A DNA stretch of 23,752 nucleotides, taken from UHGV virus genome UHGV-0369329. One strand, 5' to 3'. The notes under the pieces were generated by a model. That model ran no database searches. It was not told the origin of the DNA and saw only the letters and a list, made by a program, of their open reading frames with translations. Position 1 is the stretch's first letter. Every line of letters begins with the position of its first letter. Source of the stretch: a virus. The position numbers and the translations under genes were made by a program. Shown in pieces: positions 225-9,274 of the stretch.

Positions 225-260
225 GTGGATAAAATAATTTTACCCACCGGATTTTTACCC

Positions 261-1418
261 ATGCTCACCGTTAAGCAGATTGAAGCAGCAAAGCCGAAAG
301 AAAAACCATACCGCCTTCTCGATGGTAATGGCCTGTACCTTTATGTTCCTGTATCCGGGAAAAAGGTATGGCAGCTTCGCTACAAGATTGACGGTAAGGA
401 AAAAATACTGACCGTCGGAAAATATCCGCTTATGACTTTGCAGGAGGCAAGGGATAAAGCATGGACCGCGAGGAAAGACATCTCGGTTGGCATCGATCCG
501 GTAAAAGCGAAAAAGGCTTCGTCTAATAACAATTCCTTTAGCGCCATTTACAAGGAATGGTACGAGCACAAGAAGCAAGTATGGTCAGTAGGGTATGCGA
601 CTGAACTTGCCAAAATGTTTGATGACGACATTTTACCCATCATCGGCGGCCTTGAGATTCAGGATATTGAGCCGATGCAACTGCTGGAAGTAATCCGCAG
701 ATTTGAAGATCGCGGTGCAATGGAGCGAGCCAACAAAGCCCGCAGAAGATGCGGCGAGGTTTTCCGTTACGCTATTGTCACCGGAAGGGCTAAATATAAC
801 CCAGCACCTGACCTTGCTGACGCCATGAAAGGATACCGCAAGAAGAACTTCCCGTTTCTTCCAGCAGACCAGATCCCTGCATTCAACAAAGCACTGGCAA
901 CATTTTCAGGAAGCATCGTATCGCTCATTGCGACCAAAGTTTTACGCTACACAGCCCTAAGAACGAAAGAGCTTCGTTCCATGCAATGGAAGAACGTCGA
1001 TTTTGAAAACAGGATTATCACTATCGACGCCAGTGTGATGAAGGGCCGCAAGATTCATGTTGTTCCTATGTCAGACCAGGTGGTTGAACTTCTCACTACG
1101 CTAAGCTCCATCACTAAACCAGTATCAGAGTTTGTTTTTGCCGGGCGCAACGATAAGAAGAAGCCAATCTGCGAGAACGCGGTATTGCTTGTGATCAAAC
1201 AAATCGGCTATGAGGGTCTGGAAAGCGGTCACGGATTCAGGCATGAATTCAGCACGATTATGAACGAGCACGAATGGCCTGCCGACGCCATTGAAGTGCA
1301 ACTGGCACATGCCAACGGCGGTTCTGTGCGCGGGATTTACAACCATGCTCAGTATCTCGATAAGCGCAGAGAAATGATGCAGTGGTGGGCGGACTGGCTT
1401 GATGAGAAGGTGGAGTGA
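261..1418 (+). CDS. intS: Tyrosine recombinase/integrase, P4-family with N-terminal DUF4102-type arm domain; IntS-like, 385 aa
   Basis: ORF track 225..1418 begins at a GTG; the in-frame ATG at 261 (MLTVKQIEAAKPKEKPYRLLDGNGLYLYV) gives 385 aa, matching the IntS N-terminus as I recall it. Catalytic signature present (HGFRHEF, VRGIYNHAQY). Lies directly downstream of the tRNA, co-directional. Confidence 0.9.
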   Translation: MLTVKQIEAAKPKEKPYRLLDGNGLYLYVPVSGKKVWQLRYKIDGKEKILTVGKYPLMTLQEARDKAWTARKDISVGIDPVKAKKASSNNNSFSAIYKEWYEHKKQVWSVGYATELAKMFDDDILPIIGGLEIQDIEPMQLLEVIRRFEDRGAMERANKARRRCGEVFRYAIVTGRAKYNPAPDLADAMKGYRKKNFPFLPADQIPAFNKALATFSGSIVSLIATKVLRYTALRTKELRSMQWKNVDFENRIITIDASVMKGRKIHVVPMSDQVVELLTTLSSITKPVSEFVFAGRNDKKKPICENAVLLVIKQIGYEGLESGHGFRHEFSTIMNEHEWPADAIEVQLAHANGGSVRGIYNHAQYLDKRREMMQWWADWLDEKVE

Positions 1419-1498: not shown

Positions 1499-3496
1499 TT
1501 ATATTGCAGATATTATAAAACATAATAATTCTTCATATCTTATTCCATATCGCTCACCCCCTTCTATAGATATTCTGCGTTCTCCAGTATCATATTCAAT
1601 TAATTTTTCATCACCGGATTCTTCATCAAAAATTATCTTTTTAGCAATTACTGGTTCGTATTCAGTTTCCCATTTATCATAGCAAAAAAGACCATAGTCG
1701 TTTGCATCAAGCCCTTCTTCAGCAAATGCTTTATATACATCTTGGGCAATAATGCCAAAATGTAATCTAGCATTTTCTCCTTTTTCAATTACTGAATCTA
1801 TAAATCTAAAACAACAAACCAAACCCTTTATTTTATATGCAACACGTCTCTCTGCATCAGTAATCGGTCTTTTATCAGTCTTAACTCGACCATCCGATGT
1901 GTTAATCGTTGAAGTGCCAGCAAATATTGTATTCCACCTTCTGGATGCTGAACCGCAATTTCTAGCGTTATCTGTTGCTGGTTGTACCGACGCATCAAAA
2001 CGAGCATAATTATTCTCATCAGAAACAGGTCCCATCAATCCACTCAAAAAAGGGAGCCCGCTCTGATTAGCAATTATTAATTGGTTGTCACCTGAAGAAA
2101 TTGCCGAACCGGCATTGGTTCCGATAAATATATTACCTGTTCCAGAGCTTAACGATCTACCAGATCTATATCCAAGCATTACATTGTTACTTGCCGAACC
2201 AATAGAATTAAGTGAGTCGGCTCCTACTGCGACATTATTCATCCCTGTAGATGTGCCTGTATAAGGGTTATCTATAGAAGAAATCCCTCTTCCTGATCCG
2301 CTACCAATATATGTATTGTTATCTCCATTTGTAATCTCCCTTCCGGATGCATTGCCTATAAATGTGTTATTATTTAGAATGTTATAAGACAACCTTTTGC
2401 CTGATTGGTCTGTAACAATTCCAGCTCGCATTCCAGCCGCTCGACCTATTGCAACATTACCACTACCAGTATGAAGTTGTTGTAATGCACTTGATCCTAC
2501 TGCAACATTAAAATTTCCTTCTTTATTTTCATTTAGGGCATCGCGCCCAATTCCAATTATGTTACTAGCTGTGGTTGATTTTTTGCACGCATTCACACCA
2601 ATTGCTACAATCTCAGTGCCAGTGCATGGCGATGTATCTGTGAGATCGTCTTGAAGGGTATCACCTGATAATACACCTGTCCCAATTGCTGTAATGTTAT
2701 TGCCCGTGCTAATGTTTCTTCCTGCACTTGGTCCAATCGCAACAACTTGCCCGGATATATCATTTCCATTATATATCTTGCCAGCATCAAAACCAAAAAA
2801 AACATTTCCAATTGTCTGAGCAGGATTTGCAAATGGAATAGGTTCGTCTCCTTTACTTTGTATTATTTTACCAGGGCCATAAAATTTTCCATTAATATAG
2901 TTCTCAATTAAATAAGTACCTTGTGGAACATAAACACCGTCAGGTGAAACTGAAGATGCATAGGAAAATATATGTGTTGCGTCAATATTGCCATTAACAA
3001 TGTCGCTAACATCTTCATGTTTTACAAAATCAAGAATACTAATATTCTCTGCATTTTTATCATGCTGTGTTCGTTTTGTAGAATTAATTAAAGGTTGTTT
3101 TACTGTGATTAATGAATCACCAAGCCCATCATCTGAACTTAAAAGTTCTTGCCTTAACTGATCCGGGTCATACTTCAGCACATTAGGAAAATAAAACTGC
3201 TGCGCACCATATGCATCATAAACAGCCATAGAATGGCCTTGCACAGTTACGAACTTGGCAATCTGTCCGTTATATACCGGATATCCGGCAGCGTTAATGA
3301 TTATTGGTTGCGAAACAGGAATGTGAGAACCGTCTTCGTTCTCTACATAAACCTGAATCTGGTTTTCAGGATTTACCGGGTCAGTGTCAATTTTACCGAT
3401 ATAAATTTTGCCATTGGCTACGGCTTTAAAAGAACGCGCCATAGTGAAGAGTTGCGAAGGCATACTCACTACAACATTGGCTGTAATGTCTGTCAT
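1499..3496 (-). CDS. Tailspike/tail fibre: P22 gp9-like N-terminal head-binding domain, glycine-rich repeat fibre, C-terminal intramolecular chaperone (S74-type) domain
   Basis: N-terminus [43 protein letters not shown]...VLKYDPDQ matches the P22 tailspike head-binding domain. The middle has many G-x-x-A/N-rich repeats. The C-terminus has the TSDGRVK autoproteolysis-type motif followed by a chaperone-like domain. GGAG RBS lies 8 nt upstream of the ATG at 3496. Confidence 0.85.
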
Positions 3497-3912: not shown

Positions 3913-4641
3913 TTACGCCACATTTGAGCCATGTAGCAGGTGTTGTAGTGCTTTAACGCCTTCAGAATTGTAACGGAACGCCTCTACCTGTTTGCTGGAA
4001 TGCGCCGATTTATCTAGGAAGAACTTCCCGTACTGCTCAGTTTTGAGGTTGTTTGCGTTAGCAATGCGACCAATCTTGTTGGCCGTTACTCCAAGCTGCT
4101 CTGCAACCTCCCCTGCTGAGTAGTAATGCTCTTCTATTGCCGGAAGAGGTATTGCATTAAAACCAACGAGCGGGTTGATTATACTTGCTGCCGCTGTCTG
4201 CTTTGCCTCAGGCGCAAGATTTGGCATCAGATCGAACAGATTGGTAACAGCTTCAACCGTCATTTTCAATGTTCTCGCTTGACGATACTCAACAAGTCCA
4301 CTCGCTGATTTACCGCTTTTAATGTGCGCTTCTTGCATACTTTCAAGTTGGTCTACCAGTGAGCGGCGAACGGCTTTTGACTCGCGAGCGGCAACTCGCA
4401 ATGCTTGCTTGATTGACATCTCAATGATAACCATCGAAGTTTTGTTCGCTTTTTGCACTACACTTTTTGTGTAGTGCTCTCCATCCAATTCATCTTCAAT
4501 TTTCTCGATGAATTTGTTATTACGAACCTCCGGCTCACCGCACTGTCTACGAGCCTGATTTACCATCTCAAGCAGGCGCTGGCTGTCAATGGTTTTATCC
4601 GTGACAACGGATCCGATGTTTGCTACATTCTTAAAAGTCAT
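3913..4641 (-). CDS. Antirepressor-type protein with C-terminal KilAC/ANT-like segment, 242 aa
   Basis: Start moved to the ATG at 4641 (MTFKNVANIG...), which has an AAGGAA RBS 6 nt upstream; the track ORF starts 17 codons earlier without an RBS. C-terminal YSAGEVAEQLGVTANKIGRIANANNLKTEQYGKFF resembles the KilAC/ANT domain of phage antirepressors. Family assignment is from memory. Confidence 0.55.
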   Translation of the reverse strand: MTFKNVANIGSVVTDKTIDSQRLLEMVNQARRQCGEPEVRNNKFIEKIEDELDGEHYTKSVVQKANKTSMVIIEMSIKQALRVAARESKAVRRSLVDQLESMQEAHIKSGKSASGLVEYRQARTLKMTVEAVTNLFDLMPNLAPEAKQTAAASIINPLVGFNAIPLPAIEEHYYSAGEVAEQLGVTANKIGRIANANNLKTEQYGKFFLDKSAHSSKQVEAFRYNSEGVKALQHLLHGSNVA

Positions 4642-4710
4642 TAGGCATTCCTTATGTGGTAGTAAGGGTGTGACATAGGCCGCCAGCAGCACACTGGCGG
4701 TTTTCTTTTT
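4636..4710 (+). ncRNA. Candidate sar-like antisense RNA, about 75 nt, opposite the RBS and start of the 3913..4641 gene
   Basis: Extended -10 TGcTACATT at 4621-4629 (possible -35 GTGACA at 4601-4606, 17-bp spacer). Intrinsic terminator CCGCCAG-cagcaca-CTGGCGG at 4680-4700 followed by TTTTCTTTTT at 4701-4710. The transcript would be complementary to the AAGGAA RBS (4648-4653) and ATG (4639-4641) of the minus-strand gene. No credible plus-strand CDS here. Confidence 0.45.
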
Positions 4711-4729: not shown

Positions 4730-5356
4730 TCAATGAATCCATTCCTCGCCGCGCAGTTTTGCCAGCATTGGCTGAGCGTTCTTTACGACAAAATTGTTGG
4801 TATCAAGATTCTTCATTTCACGAAGAAGTGATTTCTTGGTTTCTTCTGACATATAGCGAGTCTCATATGCGATATCGTAAATCCTTCCTGAAAGCTCAGA
4901 ACAAATTTGCTTCATTCCTGGGTAGATGTGTTTGCACATTTGTTGACTCTTCTCCATCCACAATTGTAAGTAGCAGAGATTAACCAGTTCTTCGTCAGTA
5001 AACTGTTTTGCAATCGGTGAGCATTCTGCCTGCCGATCCAAAATATCCAGCACCCAGCGGCGGAACTCTTTGGCTACCGGAGTGCGAGCAAACATCGCGA
5101 TTAGGTGGGCACCGCGTAGTGAGAAAACTCGCACTTTTTTGCGATAATTTCCTGAGGTACTCACTTCGAGTACCTGAGTCATTCCGGCGCTAAACTCATC
5201 GCTATACTTGTTATAAATCATTGTTACTGCACGACTATTTGCGTATTTAAGTGCAGATGCAATATTAGATGATGTAAACCAAACACCATGCATATCACGG
5301 GTGGGCACCAACTCAACTCCGTGGAAGTTGTAATCTGATTTTGCTACAATATTCAT
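4730..5356 (-). CDS. Antirepressor (Ant-like) with Bro-N/AntA-type N-terminal domain, 208 aa
   Basis: Start moved to the ATG at 5356 (MNIVAKSDYNFHGVELVP...) with an AAGGAA RBS. HGVWFTSSNIASALKYANSRAVTMI...VRVFSLRGAHLIAMFARTPVAKEFRRWVLDIL fits the Bro-N/antirepressor N-terminal pattern. Sits downstream of the Arc-like gene as in P22 arc-ant. Confidence 0.6.
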   Translation of the reverse strand: MNIVAKSDYNFHGVELVPTRDMHGVWFTSSNIASALKYANSRAVTMIYNKYSDEFSAGMTQVLEVSTSGNYRKKVRVFSLRGAHLIAMFARTPVAKEFRRWVLDILDRQAECSPIAKQFTDEELVNLCYLQLWMEKSQQMCKHIYPGMKQICSELSGRIYDIAYETRYMSEETKKSLLREMKNLDTNNFVVKNAQPMLAKLRGEEWIH

Positions 5357-5431
5357 GTTAGTTTCCTTGCATACGGTTACTGACATAGAAGCCCGACTCG
5401 TGTTCGCGCACTGTCGGGCTTCGCTATTTTT
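5357..5431 (+). ncRNA. Candidate sar-like antisense RNA, about 75 nt, opposite the ant RBS, terminating at the 3' end of the arc-like gene
   Basis: Extended -10 TGcTACAAT at 5342-5350. Terminator hairpin GAAGCCCGAC...GTCGGGCTTC (5388-5422) followed by TATTTTT (5425-5431). The transcript would cover the complement of the ant RBS (5364-5369). Same architecture as P22 sar (promoter near the ant start, terminator at the arc end). Confidence 0.5.
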
Positions 5432-5597
5432 ATGTCCTAGCATTCTTCTCTCCAATCAGTCCGTACACTTTTCTCAATTGATAAATAAGTTCCGTGTTGA
5501 ACTGTCGACACTCTTTTTCTCCATTTCTTTCAATCGCCTTCCTTACATCCTCTGGGAAACGAACCTTGCGTTGATACATGTCTTTTGCTTTTTCCAT
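5430..5597 (-). CDS. Arc-like small ribbon-helix-helix protein, 55 aa; below the length cutoff of the ORF track
   Basis: Hand-translated codon by codon: MEKAKDMYQRKVRFPEDVRKAIERNGEKECRQFNTELIYQLRKVYGLIGEKNART. Strong RBS AAGGAG 5 nt before the ATG at 5597. A beta-strand-like QRKVRFPEDV followed by helix is RHH-like, though the NG...E motif is less canonical than in Arc. Position is upstream of ant and divergent from the Mnt-like gene, as for P22 arc. Confidence 0.5.
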   Translation of the reverse strand: MEKAKDMYQRKVRFPEDVRKAIERNGEKECRQFNTELIYQLRKVYGLIGEKNART

Positions 5598-5720
5598 CTC
5601 CACTCCTTAAATAGCCCCACTGTGGGGCAATCGAAATTGTCACACCGTGCGTCATTGAAGTCAACCCCACCGTGGGGCATAATTTACTTATTGTGAATTT
5701 TTCCTGTTTGGACTAATGGT
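5598..5720. promoter_or_regulatory. Divergent promoter/operator region (Pant-like leftward, Pmnt-like rightward) with twin palindromic operators
   Basis: Palindrome 1 GCCCCACtGTGGGGC at 5614-5628; palindrome 2 CCCCACcGTGGGG at 5665-5677. Plus-strand promoter TTGAAG (5655-5660), 17-bp spacer, CATAAT (5678-5683), with palindrome 2 in the spacer. Minus-strand promoter TTGACT (complement of 5659-5664), 17-bp spacer, GACAAT (complement of 5636-5641), with palindrome 1 over the predicted start/leader. The two -35 hexamers overlap. Confidence 0.6.
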
Positions 5721-6110: not shown

Positions 6111-7079
6111 TTAGATTTCTGGTTTCATTCTTCCGAAAACCTTTTCTATTCCTTTTTCGTATTCTTCTCTTGTCTCACTCATCGCTGCGACACCAAGAAG
6201 CTTACCGATATGCTGACGCAAAGCCTTGACACCAATTTCAGAAAGGAACAGATGCAACTTATCAGATTGTTTTCCGTTCTCGTCTCGGCTGGCTCTAATT
6301 TGTTCAAGGATTTTACCTTTACTCTTTGCTAGCGGGGTGTATATCTGCATGTTGGTTAGCTGCCCAAAACGAATAGGCCGTCCTTTCTCTGGCCTATTCA
6401 GGCCGTACAGTCGATACCACTCCTCGTATAGCTCATCTGGAAATTCCTTTTCATATTGACGAGCCTCTTCACGAACAAACGCTTTGAACTCGTCAATGAC
6501 AGCCTGAACTTCTGGACGATAACCAGCAAGCGCATACGCAACCCCCTTAATTCCCGCCTTAGCGGAGGCATTAATAAGTCTCTGTGCTGCGGCGGCTGCC
6601 TTTAACCGTGATTGTGGTAGATCGTCATTATCTTTGGCTTCTATTAGTGCCCTACCAATATCAACAATTGCTGTAATGTCATAACCTAACGCTTGATGAA
6701 CGGTTTTAGACTTCGAAGTAAGTTGAAATTTATAGGGATTTTCCATTTTTCGCTGCAATTCTAGATCTCGGTATTTGCTCATATACTGAGCGCCAAGCAG
6801 TTGATCTAAATCCCTGGCATGTTCACCAATCCCTAGCAACTGAGATAATCCAGTTTTCGTAACAACGACAGTTTTCGACTCGTCATCCAGTACATAACAT
6901 TCAGCATCAATGCCAAAATCATCTAAAAAGTTACCACGATGAGTTGCCCTGAGAATCTTACTTTTCCATCTTGCAGCAGCTGCTTTCTTTGCTATTTCAG
7001 AACGCTGCTCTTTAGTCAGCGACTTTGCGCGAGCGATCCCGCCCTTAGCTTTCCCTTCGCCACTTTTCTTTTCAGTCAT
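6111..7079 (-). CDS. Hypothetical 322-aa protein in the sieA/accessory slot; basic N-terminus with HTH-like SEIAKKAAAARW motif
   Basis: Start moved to the ATG at 7079 (MTEKKSGEGKAKGGIARAKSLTKEQRSEIAKKAAAARW...). Hydrophilic with no obvious TM segment. Not recognisable as any P22 structural protein. A possible P63C-type assignment is only a vague recollection. Confidence 0.55.
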   Translation of the reverse strand: MTEKKSGEGKAKGGIARAKSLTKEQRSEIAKKAAAARWKSKILRATHRGNFLDDFGIDAECYVLDDESKTVVVTKTGLSQLLGIGEHARDLDQLLGAQYMSKYRDLELQRKMENPYKFQLTSKSKTVHQALGYDITAIVDIGRALIEAKDNDDLPQSRLKAAAAAQRLINASAKAGIKGVAYALAGYRPEVQAVIDEFKAFVREEARQYEKEFPDELYEEWYRLYGLNRPEKGRPIRFGQLTNMQIYTPLAKSKGKILEQIRASRDENGKQSDKLHLFLSEIGVKALRQHIGKLLGVAAMSETREEYEKGIEKVFGRMKPEI

Positions 7080-7170
7080 AATGCAAGCACCTTTGTTGTG
7101 ATGTATGCTTGCATTATATACACTGTACACACATACAAGCAAGCATAAAGCTAAAACAAAATGCTTGCAT
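7080..7170. repeat. Four copies of a TGCTTGCATTA / ATGCWWGCAT motif in alternating orientation in a divergent intergenic region
   Basis: ATGCAAGCAC at 7081-7090 (reverse), ATGCTTGCAT at 7105-7114, AAGCAAGCAT at 7137-7146 (reverse, partial), ATGCTTGCAT at 7161-7170. Copies at 7105 and 7161 share ATGCTTGCATTA; the copy at 7081 abuts the start codon of the 322-aa gene. Confidence 0.6.
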
Positions 7171-7235
7171 TACAACCGCGCTACTCCAACTACACATTAT
7201 CATCTGGTATCCTGCGCAAAACTAAGGAGGTTGGT

Positions 7236-7424
7236 GTGAAGAAAAAATTTGTAAACGTTGCAAAGTGCGCAATTTTTATATTTTTTATGACCTTTTACGG
7301 ATTTAGTGCCGGAGAAGGTTTCGATCGTGATGCCAATGCATTCAGTTTCTTTTGTCTGTCTATAGTGGTCATAATTGTATGGGTGGAATTAAAGCAAACA
7401 TTGTTTCATGTGCTAGGGAAATAA
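7236..7424 (+). CDS. Small hydrophobic protein, 62 aa, two predicted TM helices; opposite strand to the late operon
   Basis: GTG start at 7236 preceded by a perfect AAGGAGG RBS (7223-7229) at 6-nt spacing. Product VKKKFVNVAKCAIFIFFMTFYGFSAGEGFDRDANAFSFFCLSIVVIIVWVELKQTLFHVLGK has two hydrophobic stretches. The track ORF starts at ATG 7161, which has no RBS. AT-rich, about 36% GC. Confidence 0.6.
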   Translation: MKKKFVNVAKCAIFIFFMTFYGFSAGEGFDRDANAFSFFCLSIVVIIVWVELKQTLFHVLGK

Positions 7425-7441
7425 CCATCCATGGCATTTAG

Positions 7442-9274
7442 TCACTGCTGTGTTGCCTCAGTGGCAAGCAGCGGTCTGATGGCATTCGCAGCGTTATTCA
7501 GCGCTCTTTCATAGGCTGGCGTTCCTGCTTTGGTGTTTGCCAGACGTAAGAGCGCATTCCTGGCCATAGGGCTTTCATAAACCCTCGACATAAGGCCAAT
7601 CCCTGTTTCCCCAGCCAATAGCGCGCCTCCGGTTTTTAGGTTACCAATAACCCTTACCAAAGGCGCGAGTGTCATGCCAGTCTTCGTCACAACATTAGCC
7701 TCAGATGCTCTTTTGGTAGCATCGAGAATAGATAACATCCCCTCTATCTCTTTTCCGTTCTTCCCACCAAATACAGTTTTAAACACCTGACCATTTGCTT
7801 GTTTTTGCAGCTTGCCAAGCTCGGTCATCATTTTCTGAGGGCTGTCACCTACCTTGTCAGCTATTTTGCTGATATATGCCGCCCTTAGCATGTCTTTACC
7901 TTTTTGATCGAGTTTCCCGTACAATCGAGCTATATCTGACCCATATTGTCCATACACAATGGTATTTACAGCCTCGGGAGTTAAATCTCCTTTGTTTAGA
8001 ACGTTTTTAAGGCGCGTTTGAGTTGCATGTGTTGCCATTTTTGCATAATCAGCTTTTCCCGCTCTCCATGCTGAAGCATCTTTTGGGCTAAGTCCTTTCG
8101 CTATAGATTTACTAAGGCTATTGGTTAGCGAGTTATAGACCCTGTCGACCATTGTTTGCGACATTGATGGCAGAACTGTACGATCGCCTTTTACGTCAAT
8201 GCGGAACTGAGTTCTCAGCTTATCAAGTAACTCAAAGGCATCATCTCCATTTGTTATCTCCTGAATGGCATTCTTATAATCATTAAGCGCAGAAATGGTC
8301 TGGGTGTCAGAAACACCTTTAAGTTTCCCAAGTTCGTTTACTGCTCCGTCGATAGCTCTTATGGCGCCACTTGTATCAACTGGCTTTCCAACCATTCTTC
8401 CTGACAGGCTGTTTAGTTTTGACTTGGCTAACGATTTTTCCCTTGCAACGCCTGACTTTAGACTATCAACGACTACAGATGGATCGTAGTCGCCGTATTT
8501 TTCGGTGAAGCGATTAACAAGCTTGGTTCTGGCATCCTGCTGTGCGGCTCTCATTGGTCCAGTACCAGCTATGACTCCTTCTGAGTAACCCTGCAGTTGA
8601 TTGCCAAGTTTTGTTTTTGGAGGAACTACATCCGATGTCATAACTGGTACATCTGCCGCAGCGGCACGCTTGAGCAATTGCTGATCTGCTGGTGATATTT
8701 CGCCACGAACAGCAGTAATTCCACGCCCTATTCCCTTTGCTGCTGCGGAAAGAACCCCCTGAGCGGCAAGGTTAACTCCGGCATTTTTAGCTGCATTTTG
8801 TGCGAAATCGCCTTCCTGATTTGCGGCCTCTGCCAGTGATCCAATAGCCATGCTTCCTGCCGTTCCAACTCCTGGAACTAAATACCCGCCAATTGTTTCT
8901 CCAGCTTGCGCATAAGGGTCTGTTGGTCGATCTACTGGACGATAGACATCGTCCAAAACCTTGGGGCCACCAAGCCCCTGGCTGATTGCATTAATCAGAC
9001 TTGCGCCACCCTGCAATACGTCAAATGGTATGTTTACCAGACCACGACCAGCCTGCTCTGCAATTTGCCCTGCACTTTGACCACCAGTGAGCCAATCGCC
9101 AGCTTGTTGCATCAATGATGGTTCTTCCCGTGTTGGTGCATTATTGTCCTGATTAACTGTTTGTTGCTGAACAGCCTGACCAGCAAAATACTCATCAATG
9201 GCGGTGCCAATATCTTCCGTGCTCGTACCATCAGGGAAGGTAAATGTCTTACCGTTTGCAGTTACTTTCATCAT
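7442..9274 (-). CDS. Ejection (injection) protein, P22 gp16 homologue, 610 aa
   Basis: Size and position (last gene of the virion module, after the gp20 homologue) match P22 gene 16 (609 aa). Assignment is by synteny and length rather than recalled sequence. Confidence 0.8.

Follow-up and report, generated by a model that had tools for sequence, protein, structure and literature searches.

A P63C-family prophage gene with an array of conserved operator-like sites: a candidate self-repressed mobile cassette

The P63C domain, which takes its name from protein p63 of Myxococcus phage Mx8, was reportedly first catalogued by Iyer, Koonin and Aravind in 2002 among the shuffled domains of phage regulators. 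The insertion sequence (IS) IS1 encodes the repressor InsA, which is small and acts by binding to the ends of the IS. BstA of Salmonella phage BTP1 is a prophage-encoded abortive-infection protein of 307 amino acids (aa); its gene lies downstream of cI and has its own terminator, and the protein localizes to replicating phage DNA (PMC8585504). A 63 bp DNA element termed aba spans the BstA start codon and neutralizes BstA when it is present in multiple copies (PMC8585504). Described here is a P63C-family gene of UHGV virus genome UHGV-0369329, a P22-like (Lederbergvirus-type) stretch of 23,752 nucleotides (nt) that is referred to below as the window and to which all coordinates apply unless another locus is named. 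An array of four short quasi-palindromes, a promoter, the gene and a terminator together form a self-contained cassette unit. Comparative sequence analysis gives good support to a self-repressed mobile cassette, and a BstA-like exclusion role is only inferred. The full reading, a self-repressed accessory cassette with an exclusion-type effector core, is assigned a probability of roughly 0.45.

The gene product (positions in Table 1) has 322 residues, and its N-terminus begins MTEKKSGEGKAKGGIARAKSLTKEQRSEIAKKAAAARW. Homologues number 1682 in a set of 5.8 billion proteins. An identical protein is found at the same place in Lederbergvirus vB_EcoP-611R6 and in Escherichia coli prophages (WP_000136767.1), and 23 IMG/VR contigs encode the window protein at 100% identity. 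The initial annotation, which had proposed a real 322-aa open reading frame (ORF) for a soluble protein that is not part of the virion, is borne out in these respects. A longer ORF of 343 aa with a TTG start at 7142 was considered and rejected as an artefact, its extension being an in-frame reading across the upstream sites.

The protein matches the Pfam family PF10546 (P63C) over residues 199–286 with 52.7 bits, against a gathering cutoff of 26.1, and PF10546 is precomputed on all 240 homologues listed. Residues 6–321 align with positions 4–328 of the 338-position profile of PHROG 2384, annotated as ‘unknown function’ (E 1.7e-104). Two large branches can be distinguished, that of the window protein with its 1682 matches and that of L0095 of phage 933W with more than 7600; P63C is the sole recognized domain in both. 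More than 9,000 clusters of P63C proteins were found, which include proteins of Stx phages such as 933W and of P22-like prophages of E. coli and Salmonella. Databases already call the identical proteins ‘P63C domain-containing protein’, and the literature on P63C function has only three incidental mentions of a ‘P63C domain’ and none of PF10546. NCBIfam has no match for the window protein. The family assignment was missing from the initial annotation, as were the site array and the link to IS1-family elements described below.

Three segments are recognized in the AlphaFold2 (AF2) model of the protein: a basic two-helix module at the N-terminus (GKAKGGIARAKSLTKEQRSEIAKKAAAARW), an alpha/beta N-domain that is modelled with confidence, and an all-helical C-terminal half that contains the P63C domain. 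The residues that are invariant between the window-type and 933W-type subfamilies are glycines, aromatics, prolines and aliphatics, and no set of Asp, Glu or His residues is conserved between them. The protein is therefore more readily seen as a binding protein than as an enzyme. An enzymatic function was rejected as a candidate on the same ground; the segment VDEATGYQ of the 933W branch, for example, corresponds to AYALAGYR in the window protein.

The LTKEQRSEIAKKAAAARW motif of the lysine-rich N-terminus had been read at first as like a helix-turn-helix (HTH). The sequence feature is present and belongs to a conserved module; no HTH family model of Pfam or NCBIfam matches the window protein. 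The motif varies together with an upstream site array (see below), and it very probably serves to bind nucleic acid.

The 157 bp region 5′ of the ATG displays four quasi-palindromes of the form ATGCWWGCAT, each 10 bp long, between 7081 and 7170. Their central dinucleotide alternates between AA and TT, and with it the orientation of the sites, and the centres are spaced at about 24, 32 and 24 bp. Together the four sites cover the −35, the −10 with the transcription start site (TSS) and also the start of translation at a canonical sigma-70 promoter. No further sites of this kind are present in the 23.7 kb window.

The array is not confined to phages. In an environmental set of 80 loci, with one genome per species, the complete four-site array is present in 45 loci and at least two sites in about 55. 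Loci with sites come from Enterobacterales, Burkholderiales, Alphaproteobacteria, Myxococcota, Acidobacteriota, Abditibacteria and metagenome-assembled genomes of Firmicutes; protein identity in the set is 43–76%. Counted from the ATG, site positions are about −86, −63, −32 and −8; the start codon usually falls within the last site (ATGCTTGCATG). Their density is 14.8 per kb at the start codon compared with 0.056 per kb elsewhere in the same loci, a 260-fold local enrichment. Positions 3–9 of the sites, the core, are invariant over the 45 arrays. The promoter is conserved with them: a −10 sequence TAnAAT (T in 33, A in 36, A in 37 and T in 40 of the 45 arrays, which come from many phyla) ends in two bases that also belong to site 3, a −35-like TTGCAT lies inside site 2 at a spacing of 17–18 nt, and a purine-rich Shine–Dalgarno (SD) sequence directly precedes site 4 in nearly all arrays.

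The array is also kept in every prophage slot in which the gene occurs, including that of orf23 of phage ST104, whose protein is only 29–31% identical to the window protein. The annotated start of ST104 orf23 (L002:3917-4996, NC_005841) is probably 12 codons early. Its first codons (ATG CAA GCA CAT ...) result from in-frame reading of operator site 3, and the likely start is at L002:3953 (MSDKESKE...). In-frame pseudo-extensions of the types ‘MLAM’, ‘DACM’ and ‘MQAH’ have the same origin at many loci.

Since the sites are inverted with respect to one another, they could also be read as RNA elements, with inverted pairs forming hairpins in the 5′ untranslated region (UTR) that control translation. 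A transcript with sites 3 and 4 (window 7074-7122) is predicted to form a hairpin of −17.5 kcal/mol (z −4.68) in which the AUG is buried, and some edge positions look compensatory in single loci. The stem core, however, never varies in the 45 arrays, so that there is no covariation. Complementarity drops to background right outside the 10-mer, and the variable edge positions have no excess of compensatory pairs (C:G pairs, 7 observed and 5.6 expected). Because the conserved −10 puts the TSS at the end of site 3, the native leader would not have the 5′ arm of the hairpin; a leader made from the gene's own promoter is unstructured (−2.1 kcal/mol). No Rfam family matches the repeats. An invariant core without pair covariation indicates selection on the sequence itself, as is expected of protein-binding sites. 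With the pair-by-pair analysis of the 45 arrays, the TSS geometry and the Rfam result taken together, a hairpin or riboswitch reading was discarded, and RNA control by the repeats is considered very improbable.

In a transcript that runs through from the late operon, sites 3 and 4 would pair and hide the AUG, which would not happen in the cassette's own transcript. Silencing of read-through may thus be a by-product of the array, by which translation is shielded from outside transcription.

The best candidate for a reader of the sites is the protein itself. It is the only protein that is constant across the contexts in which the array is found. The first 40 residues of the window protein and ST104 orf23 are about 70% conserved, the remainder is about 25% identical, and both genes have the same sites. 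When module classes were anchored on the conserved ATHKG motif, at least two sites were found at 55 of 58 loci whose proteins carry the canonical ...IAKKAAxARW(G/K) module and at two of 18 with a variant module or none (Fisher p 1.2e-11, a statistic that counts loci and not independent evolutionary events, the variant group being largely one clade). Because the presence and type of the module vary together with the array, the module is proposed to read the sites and the gene to be self-repressed. Binding of the module to the four sites, with repression of the gene's own promoter, is on these grounds considered highly likely.

Variants of the module come with variants of the repeat. In a clade of Acidobacteriota both elements differ, the module being AAKxLSxLGAxKGG...IARAAIQARWEKAGK and the inverted repeat TATACTTGCYCGRG / CYCGRGCAAGTATA. 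These repeats, in the order TATACTTGCYCGRG ... CYCGRGCAAGTATA, flank a −35-like hexamer TTGACTT in the upstream 140 nt, after a terminator. The loci concerned (L036, L040, L044, L046, L052, L054, L060, L063, L071 and L095) offer a natural specificity-swap pair. L0095 of 933W, about 27% identical to the window protein, has an altered helix 2 and an ACGTGCA repeat that differs from the window sites. Four P63C proteins that lack the module also lack the repeats.

Upstream of both the window and the 933W cassettes there is a common segment, TTAGTTTTG(A/C)GCAG(A/G)ATACCA (window 7196-7226; 933W, L003:3805-3835). Part of the junction segment of the window array (TTAGTTTTGMGCAGRATACCA) also precedes L0095. 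The shared segment may mark a mosaic boundary in lambdoid phages or act as a linker in them.

The module is also portable. In the form GGxKGGxARAxxLTxEQRxEIAxKAAxARW it is found in at least 304 other cluster representatives, mostly proteins of 50–130 aa (e.g. L027:4969-5208 and L093:3933-4223, both on the minus strand, and P0363, P0391 and P0454). It is often C-terminal, is sometimes present in two to four tandem copies and is once fused to an XRE-type HTH. Pfam has no family for the module, either in the window protein or in ten other carriers.

The gene with its flanking signals occupies several positions in prophages. In E. coli genomes a block from about 6079 to about 7240, which takes in the terminator, the gene and the upstream region, is conserved at more than 99% identity. 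The terminator is its left edge, and its right end, at about 7238–7244, falls exactly at the start codon of a divergent cargo gene. In E. coli and Salmonella this cargo is SieA (164 aa; strain elppa4 and Salmonella), a hypothetical protein of 109 or 75 aa, or, in the window, an ORF of 62 aa. The cargo thus varies from one prophage to another, and its 5′ UTR and SD (AAGGAGG) are constant.

Other copies lie downstream of a cI-type repressor gene and after a terminator, which is the slot of bstA in BTP1 (a Klebsiella copy, 80% identical, and ST104 orf23), in the nin region between a DNA methylase gene and roi (933W), and in the Q antiterminator–holin slot where stx is found (Enterobacter, 62% identical). 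Among the 80 best viral contigs, 33 copies are in immI, 23 in the Q–holin slot, about nine in the cI/N region and 16 in unclassified positions. The comparison of these loci indicates that the cassette moves among at least four slots for prophage morons, i.e. immI, downstream of cI, nin and Q–holin. At loci without a transposase gene a conserved partner gene or defence island was sought and rejected; the neighbours are heterogeneous and include housekeeping genes.

It had been suggested that the gene fills the place of sieA, the superinfection-exclusion gene of P22. This does not hold. Related prophages (L004 and L011) encode an intact SieA (PF26849) beside the same P63C gene, which rules out a replacement, and in the window protein Pfam finds P63C only, with the gene on the strand of the late operon. 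The true sieA slot is 7236-7424, and the P63C gene is what stays constant beside it. The broader suggestion of an accessory position is confirmed, as the gene sits in the immI accessory region.

The same gene is also a passenger of an IS1-family element. In 38 of the 80 environmental loci the array separates the P63C gene from a divergent transposase gene of this family (PF03400, above the gathering score) that lies about 137 nt upstream. An ORF of 72–113 aa converges on the P63C stop codon at 29 loci, 26 of which also have the transposase, and the two stops overlap. The C-terminus of this small partner reads ...NPAAVALGRLGGLKGGKARAxKLTxEERxEIAKKAAxARWKK. It is formed by the N-terminal module of the P63C protein, with a match to positions 8–38 of PHROG 2384 at E 3.5e-7. 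At 20 or more of the environmental loci the unit is bounded by terminal inverted repeats (TIRs; GGTAGTGKSTCAGTTTGAA). The minimal element, about 2.3 kb (L027:2978-5283, or about −1023 to +1282 relative to the P63C ATG), holds just the transposase, array, P63C and small partner.

The order within the element is TIR, DDE_Tnp_IS1 transposase, four-site array, P63C, small convergent partner and second TIR; further copies are at L037, L042, L065, L072, L093 and other loci, with larger versions that carry extra cargo. The hosts are Proteobacteria, Acidobacteriota, Myxococcota and others. The P63C gene is still intact where the transposase gene has decayed or is absent. Neither the window nor the 80 viral loci contain the TIR (with up to two mismatches), the transposase or the partner. 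The literature has no description of this IS1 passenger.

The divergent arrangement raises the question of whether the protein is a dedicated transcription factor for the gene on the other side of the array, either the cargo of the sieA slot or the IS1 transposase, in which case it would govern copy number or transposition, with its core serving only in oligomerization and looping across the four sites. The array lies between divergent genes in immI and in the 38 environmental loci, the conserved E. coli block takes in the SD and 5′ UTR of the cargo, and four spaced sites suggest a higher-order repressor complex. A small IS partner with the same module, as would be expected of a regulatory pair, and the lack of catalytic residues also fit such a role. 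On the other hand, the cassette is equally common without a divergent gene, downstream of cI and in the Q–holin slot. No conserved mirror-image promoter faces the divergent gene, and the array is the only one in the window. The core of about 280 aa, 43–50% identical across phyla and also found without the module, exceeds what oligomerization would need, and P63C stays intact where there is no functional transposase. A dedicated transcription factor is accordingly regarded as rather unlikely, although it is the chief alternative.

The small convergent partner could also point to an addiction module of the toxin–antitoxin (TA) type, in which P63C inhibits growth and the partner acts as antidote and co-repressor, so that the IS or prophage is stabilized. 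The promoter appears to be tightly autoregulated, the stops of partner and P63C overlap at the 29 loci, mostly together with a transposase, and a shared operator-binding module is typical of co-repression by antitoxin and toxin. Against this, the window and 80 viral copies have an intact P63C gene without the partner, which indicates that the protein is not strongly toxic alone. The two genes are convergent and form no operon, there are no toxin-like catalytic residues, and neither TA nor defence hidden Markov models (HMMs) match the window protein. This is one of two readings considered less likely, and its chance is put as very slim.

A link to BstA was found at the level of profiles. By hhalign, residues 61–190 of a combined P63C profile align with residues 30–154 of BstA (PF26567) at a probability of 72.8% (E 3.2e-5, 110 columns); narrower P63C profiles give 42% (window-type), 16.7% and 1.7% (933W-type), always with the same BstA segment. 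Reversed-profile controls give at most 0.4%. BLASTP (E 0.8) and single-sequence hhalign are negative for direct homology to BstA, and PF10546 and PF26567 are never combined in one protein in the precomputed Pfam lists. Local Pfam misses PF26567 even in BstA itself, and the comparison of the C-terminal domains is therefore that of hhalign. Homology of the P63C N-domain to the KilA-N-like domain of BstA (residues 32–147) is suggestive. The remote-homology and fold searches that had been recommended at the outset yielded a family and a possible distant N-domain relative, but no relative of known fold.

The weak matches of Foldseek (E at least 9e-4, TM about 0.2–0.35) are enriched for viral proteins described as Bro-N, antirepressor N-terminal or ‘repressor domain’. 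The second of the less likely readings takes up this likeness: an antirepressor-like or inducer protein, comparable to P22 Ant, Roi or other Bro-N/KilA-N proteins, that binds and inactivates the repressors, or further regulators, of competing prophages or satellites. The gene is beside roi in 933W, and immI of the window holds two ant genes. The window protein nevertheless has no Pfam match to Bro-N, ANT or KilA-N, and Foldseek gives poor E-values. That the gene is conserved as an IS passenger in phyla that include Acidobacteriota and Myxococcota fits phage-repressor targets poorly, and constitutive, autoregulated expression in lysogens would be odd for an inducer. This reading is given a slim chance.

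The self-repressed accessory cassette with an exclusion-type effector core is favoured over these alternatives. In this scheme, the module would bind the sites and set up a tight negative autoregulation, with a low, constant amount of protein in lysogens, and expression would be insulated from surrounding phage or IS transcription. The core would act as a non-enzymatic effector that binds nucleic acid or protein in conflicts between mobile elements. By analogy with aba of BstA, the protein could be titrated by an array that replicates with the element carrying it. The effector part of the proposal is drawn from the slots, the domain architecture and the 73%-probability match to the BstA N-domain. 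That the core most plausibly serves in exclusion or abortive infection of superinfecting phages, with the array as a decoy, is offered by analogy as a tentative, somewhat doubtful proposal. A still broader version is thought unlikely: that the phylum-spanning cassette, which rides an IS1-family element in soil bacteria and is a moron of enterobacterial prophages, encodes a BstA-like, non-enzymatic, DNA-sensing exclusion protein with a built-in reader and a new type of C-terminal effector domain, and that the array would both set the dose and act as a decoy for self-immunity during replication of the carrier.

A role in exclusion or defence had been put forward at the start from gene position alone. 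It is plausible in view of the rex/bstA, stx and nin slots and the weak BstA N-domain link, but no known defence model matches, and several other observations weigh against the favoured reading. With the defence HMMs of PADLOC-DB 2.0, no family is hit at E ≤ 1 by the window protein or ST104 orf23; 933W L0095 has a chance-level match only. The C-terminal half is helical and poorly modelled by AF2, with a predicted local distance difference test (pLDDT) of about 50–70 and packing of low confidence, and the window protein has no fold relative in the PDB. The C-terminal domains of BstA and P63C do not match in profile–profile comparison, and the N-domain match weakens with narrower profiles. Binding to the sites is deduced from the covariation, with its locus-based count. 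The gene has the orientation of the late operon, and the stretch from gp16 to the gene shows no terminator, such that the window copy may also be transcribed late in lytic growth. Lastly, the association with an IS1 transposase and a module-bearing partner could mean that the ancestral role was control of transposition and not defence.

The surroundings of the gene are summarized in Table 1. The placement between a gp16-type gene and an Arc/Mnt-like gene, the presence of a strong terminator behind the gene and the existence of a 62-aa membrane protein next to it, all proposed from inspection of the window, were each confirmed. The terminator consists of a 10 bp GC-rich stem with a U run behind it; on the gene strand it folds at −16.2 kcal/mol (z −3.45). 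On the plus strand it is weaker (−14.2 kcal/mol) and has a poor U tail; it is efficient on the minus strand.

Two further products of the window depart from P22. Mnt of P22 has about 83 aa. The product in the Mnt position is an Arc-like ribbon-helix-helix (RHH) protein (residues 2–40) with a long C-terminal extension that is probably a coiled coil. In the Mnt slot of other prophages (L014 and L099) a ClpP-like protease is encoded beside mnt. The tailspike has a P22-type head-binding domain and, at its C-terminus, an intramolecular chaperone domain (Peptidase_S74), together with a weak signal of endosialidase type; this combination suggests a self-cleaving spike that is specific for capsule or O-antigen and differs from the P22 spike. 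In the tandem antirepressor pair of immI, one product has Bro-N and P22_AR_C (phrog_245), and the other has no Pfam domain and a full-length match to phrog_1726 ‘anti-repressor’.

Table 1. Positions of the P63C cassette, its putative control signals and neighbouring genes in the window
Feature	Positions	Strand	Remarks
P63C-family coding sequence, 322 aa	6111..7079	-	ATG 7079-7077, stop 6113-6111; from ORF list and sequence
N-terminal basic two-helix module, codons ~9-39	6963..7055	-	AF2 helices 10-20 and 23-39; putative operator reader
Alpha/beta N-domain, codons ~42-175	6555..6956	-	Beta-hairpin and helices, putative KilA-N/Bro-N-like type
Pfam P63C domain, codons 199-286	6222..6485	-	Within the all-helical C-terminal half
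Operator site 1 (ATGCAAGCAT)	7161..7170	-	Most upstream
Operator site 2 (ATGCTTGCTT)	7137..7146	-	Holds −35 TTGCTT (7142-7137)
Operator site 3 (ATGCAAGCAT)	7105..7114	-	Starts with the final two bases of the −10; predicted TSS inside, at its end
Operator site 4 (GTGCTTGCAT on gene strand)	7081..7090	-	Fills the SD-to-ATG spacer, 1 nt from ATG
−10 hexamer TATAAT, own sigma-70 promoter	7113..7118	-	18-nt spacer to −35 at 7137-7142
Shine–Dalgarno AAAGG	7090..7094	-	
Conserved junction segment, array to divergent cargo gene	7171..7235	.	Includes cargo SD AAGGAGG (7224-7230)
Intrinsic terminator stem-loop	6083..6106	.	Common to P63C gene and convergent Mnt-like gene; stem 6106-6083; terminator scan and fold
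Divergent 62-aa ORF, two transmembrane segments	7236..7424	+	GTG start; phrog_21338 full length, E 4e-45
gp16-type DNA-transfer gene	7442-9274		phrog_770, E 5e-246; virion genes beyond
Arc/Mnt-like RHH gene, 124 aa	5721-6095	+	
arc-like gene	5430-5603		
Second antirepressor gene of tandem pair	4730-5455	-	
Antirepressor gene of tandem pair	3913-4692	-	
Tailspike	1499-3496	-	
Integrase	225-1418		

The P63C cassette links prophage morons of the rex/bstA, stx, nin and immI slots with a passenger gene of an IS1-family element and, tentatively, with the BstA family. It also gives P63C proteins an anatomy that can be tested, consisting of a portable reader module, a 10 bp operator, a promoter layout common to several phyla and a conserved effector core. 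If the exclusion role is true, P63C would be a very widespread single-gene defence system, and this would explain a conserved gene beside stx and sieA; if control of transposition is true, it would be an IS-encoded governor of a new type. Under both roles, the operator and its reader would be a ready-made orthogonal repressor system. The sequence itself is already in databases; the sources searched describe neither the operator array and its reader module nor the status as an IS1 passenger or the link to the BstA N-domain.

Compared with the description of the PF10546 family, whose Pfam model covers only residues 199–286, the locus adds the module at the N-terminus, the N-domain of alpha/beta type, the array of operators and the association with IS1. 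SieA of P22 is similar in being the product of an accessory gene in the immI area between gene 16 and mnt. It differs in its length of 164 aa and its location on the opposite strand; it co-occurs with the P63C gene and has no sequence relation to it.

Among IS-encoded regulators the likeness lies in the position of P63C within an IS1-family element, divergent from the transposase and with the array between, at 20 or more loci. InsA of IS1 differs: the P63C sites are internal, the protein has 320 aa with a conserved core that does not read DNA, and the phage copies have neither transposase nor TIRs. The Bro-N/KilA-N/ANT regulators, such as P22 Ant and Roi of HK022 and 933W, share a beta-hairpin and helix signature (YVLDDxxKTxVVTKxGLxxLLG), a modular shuffling of domains and, through their ant and roi genes, nearness to the P63C gene. 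They differ in the C-terminal domain and are not known for an array of self-operators or for IS passenger status.

The closest comparison is with BstA. [quoted passage not shown] The slot downstream of cI is held by the P63C homologues ST104 orf23 and Klebsiella P0013, the window copy being in immI. Both have a cis DNA element across the gene start and a spread across phyla at about 50% identity. BstA differs in that it has no basic N-terminal module, and aba consists of direct CCCGCC repeats and not of four quasi-palindromes.

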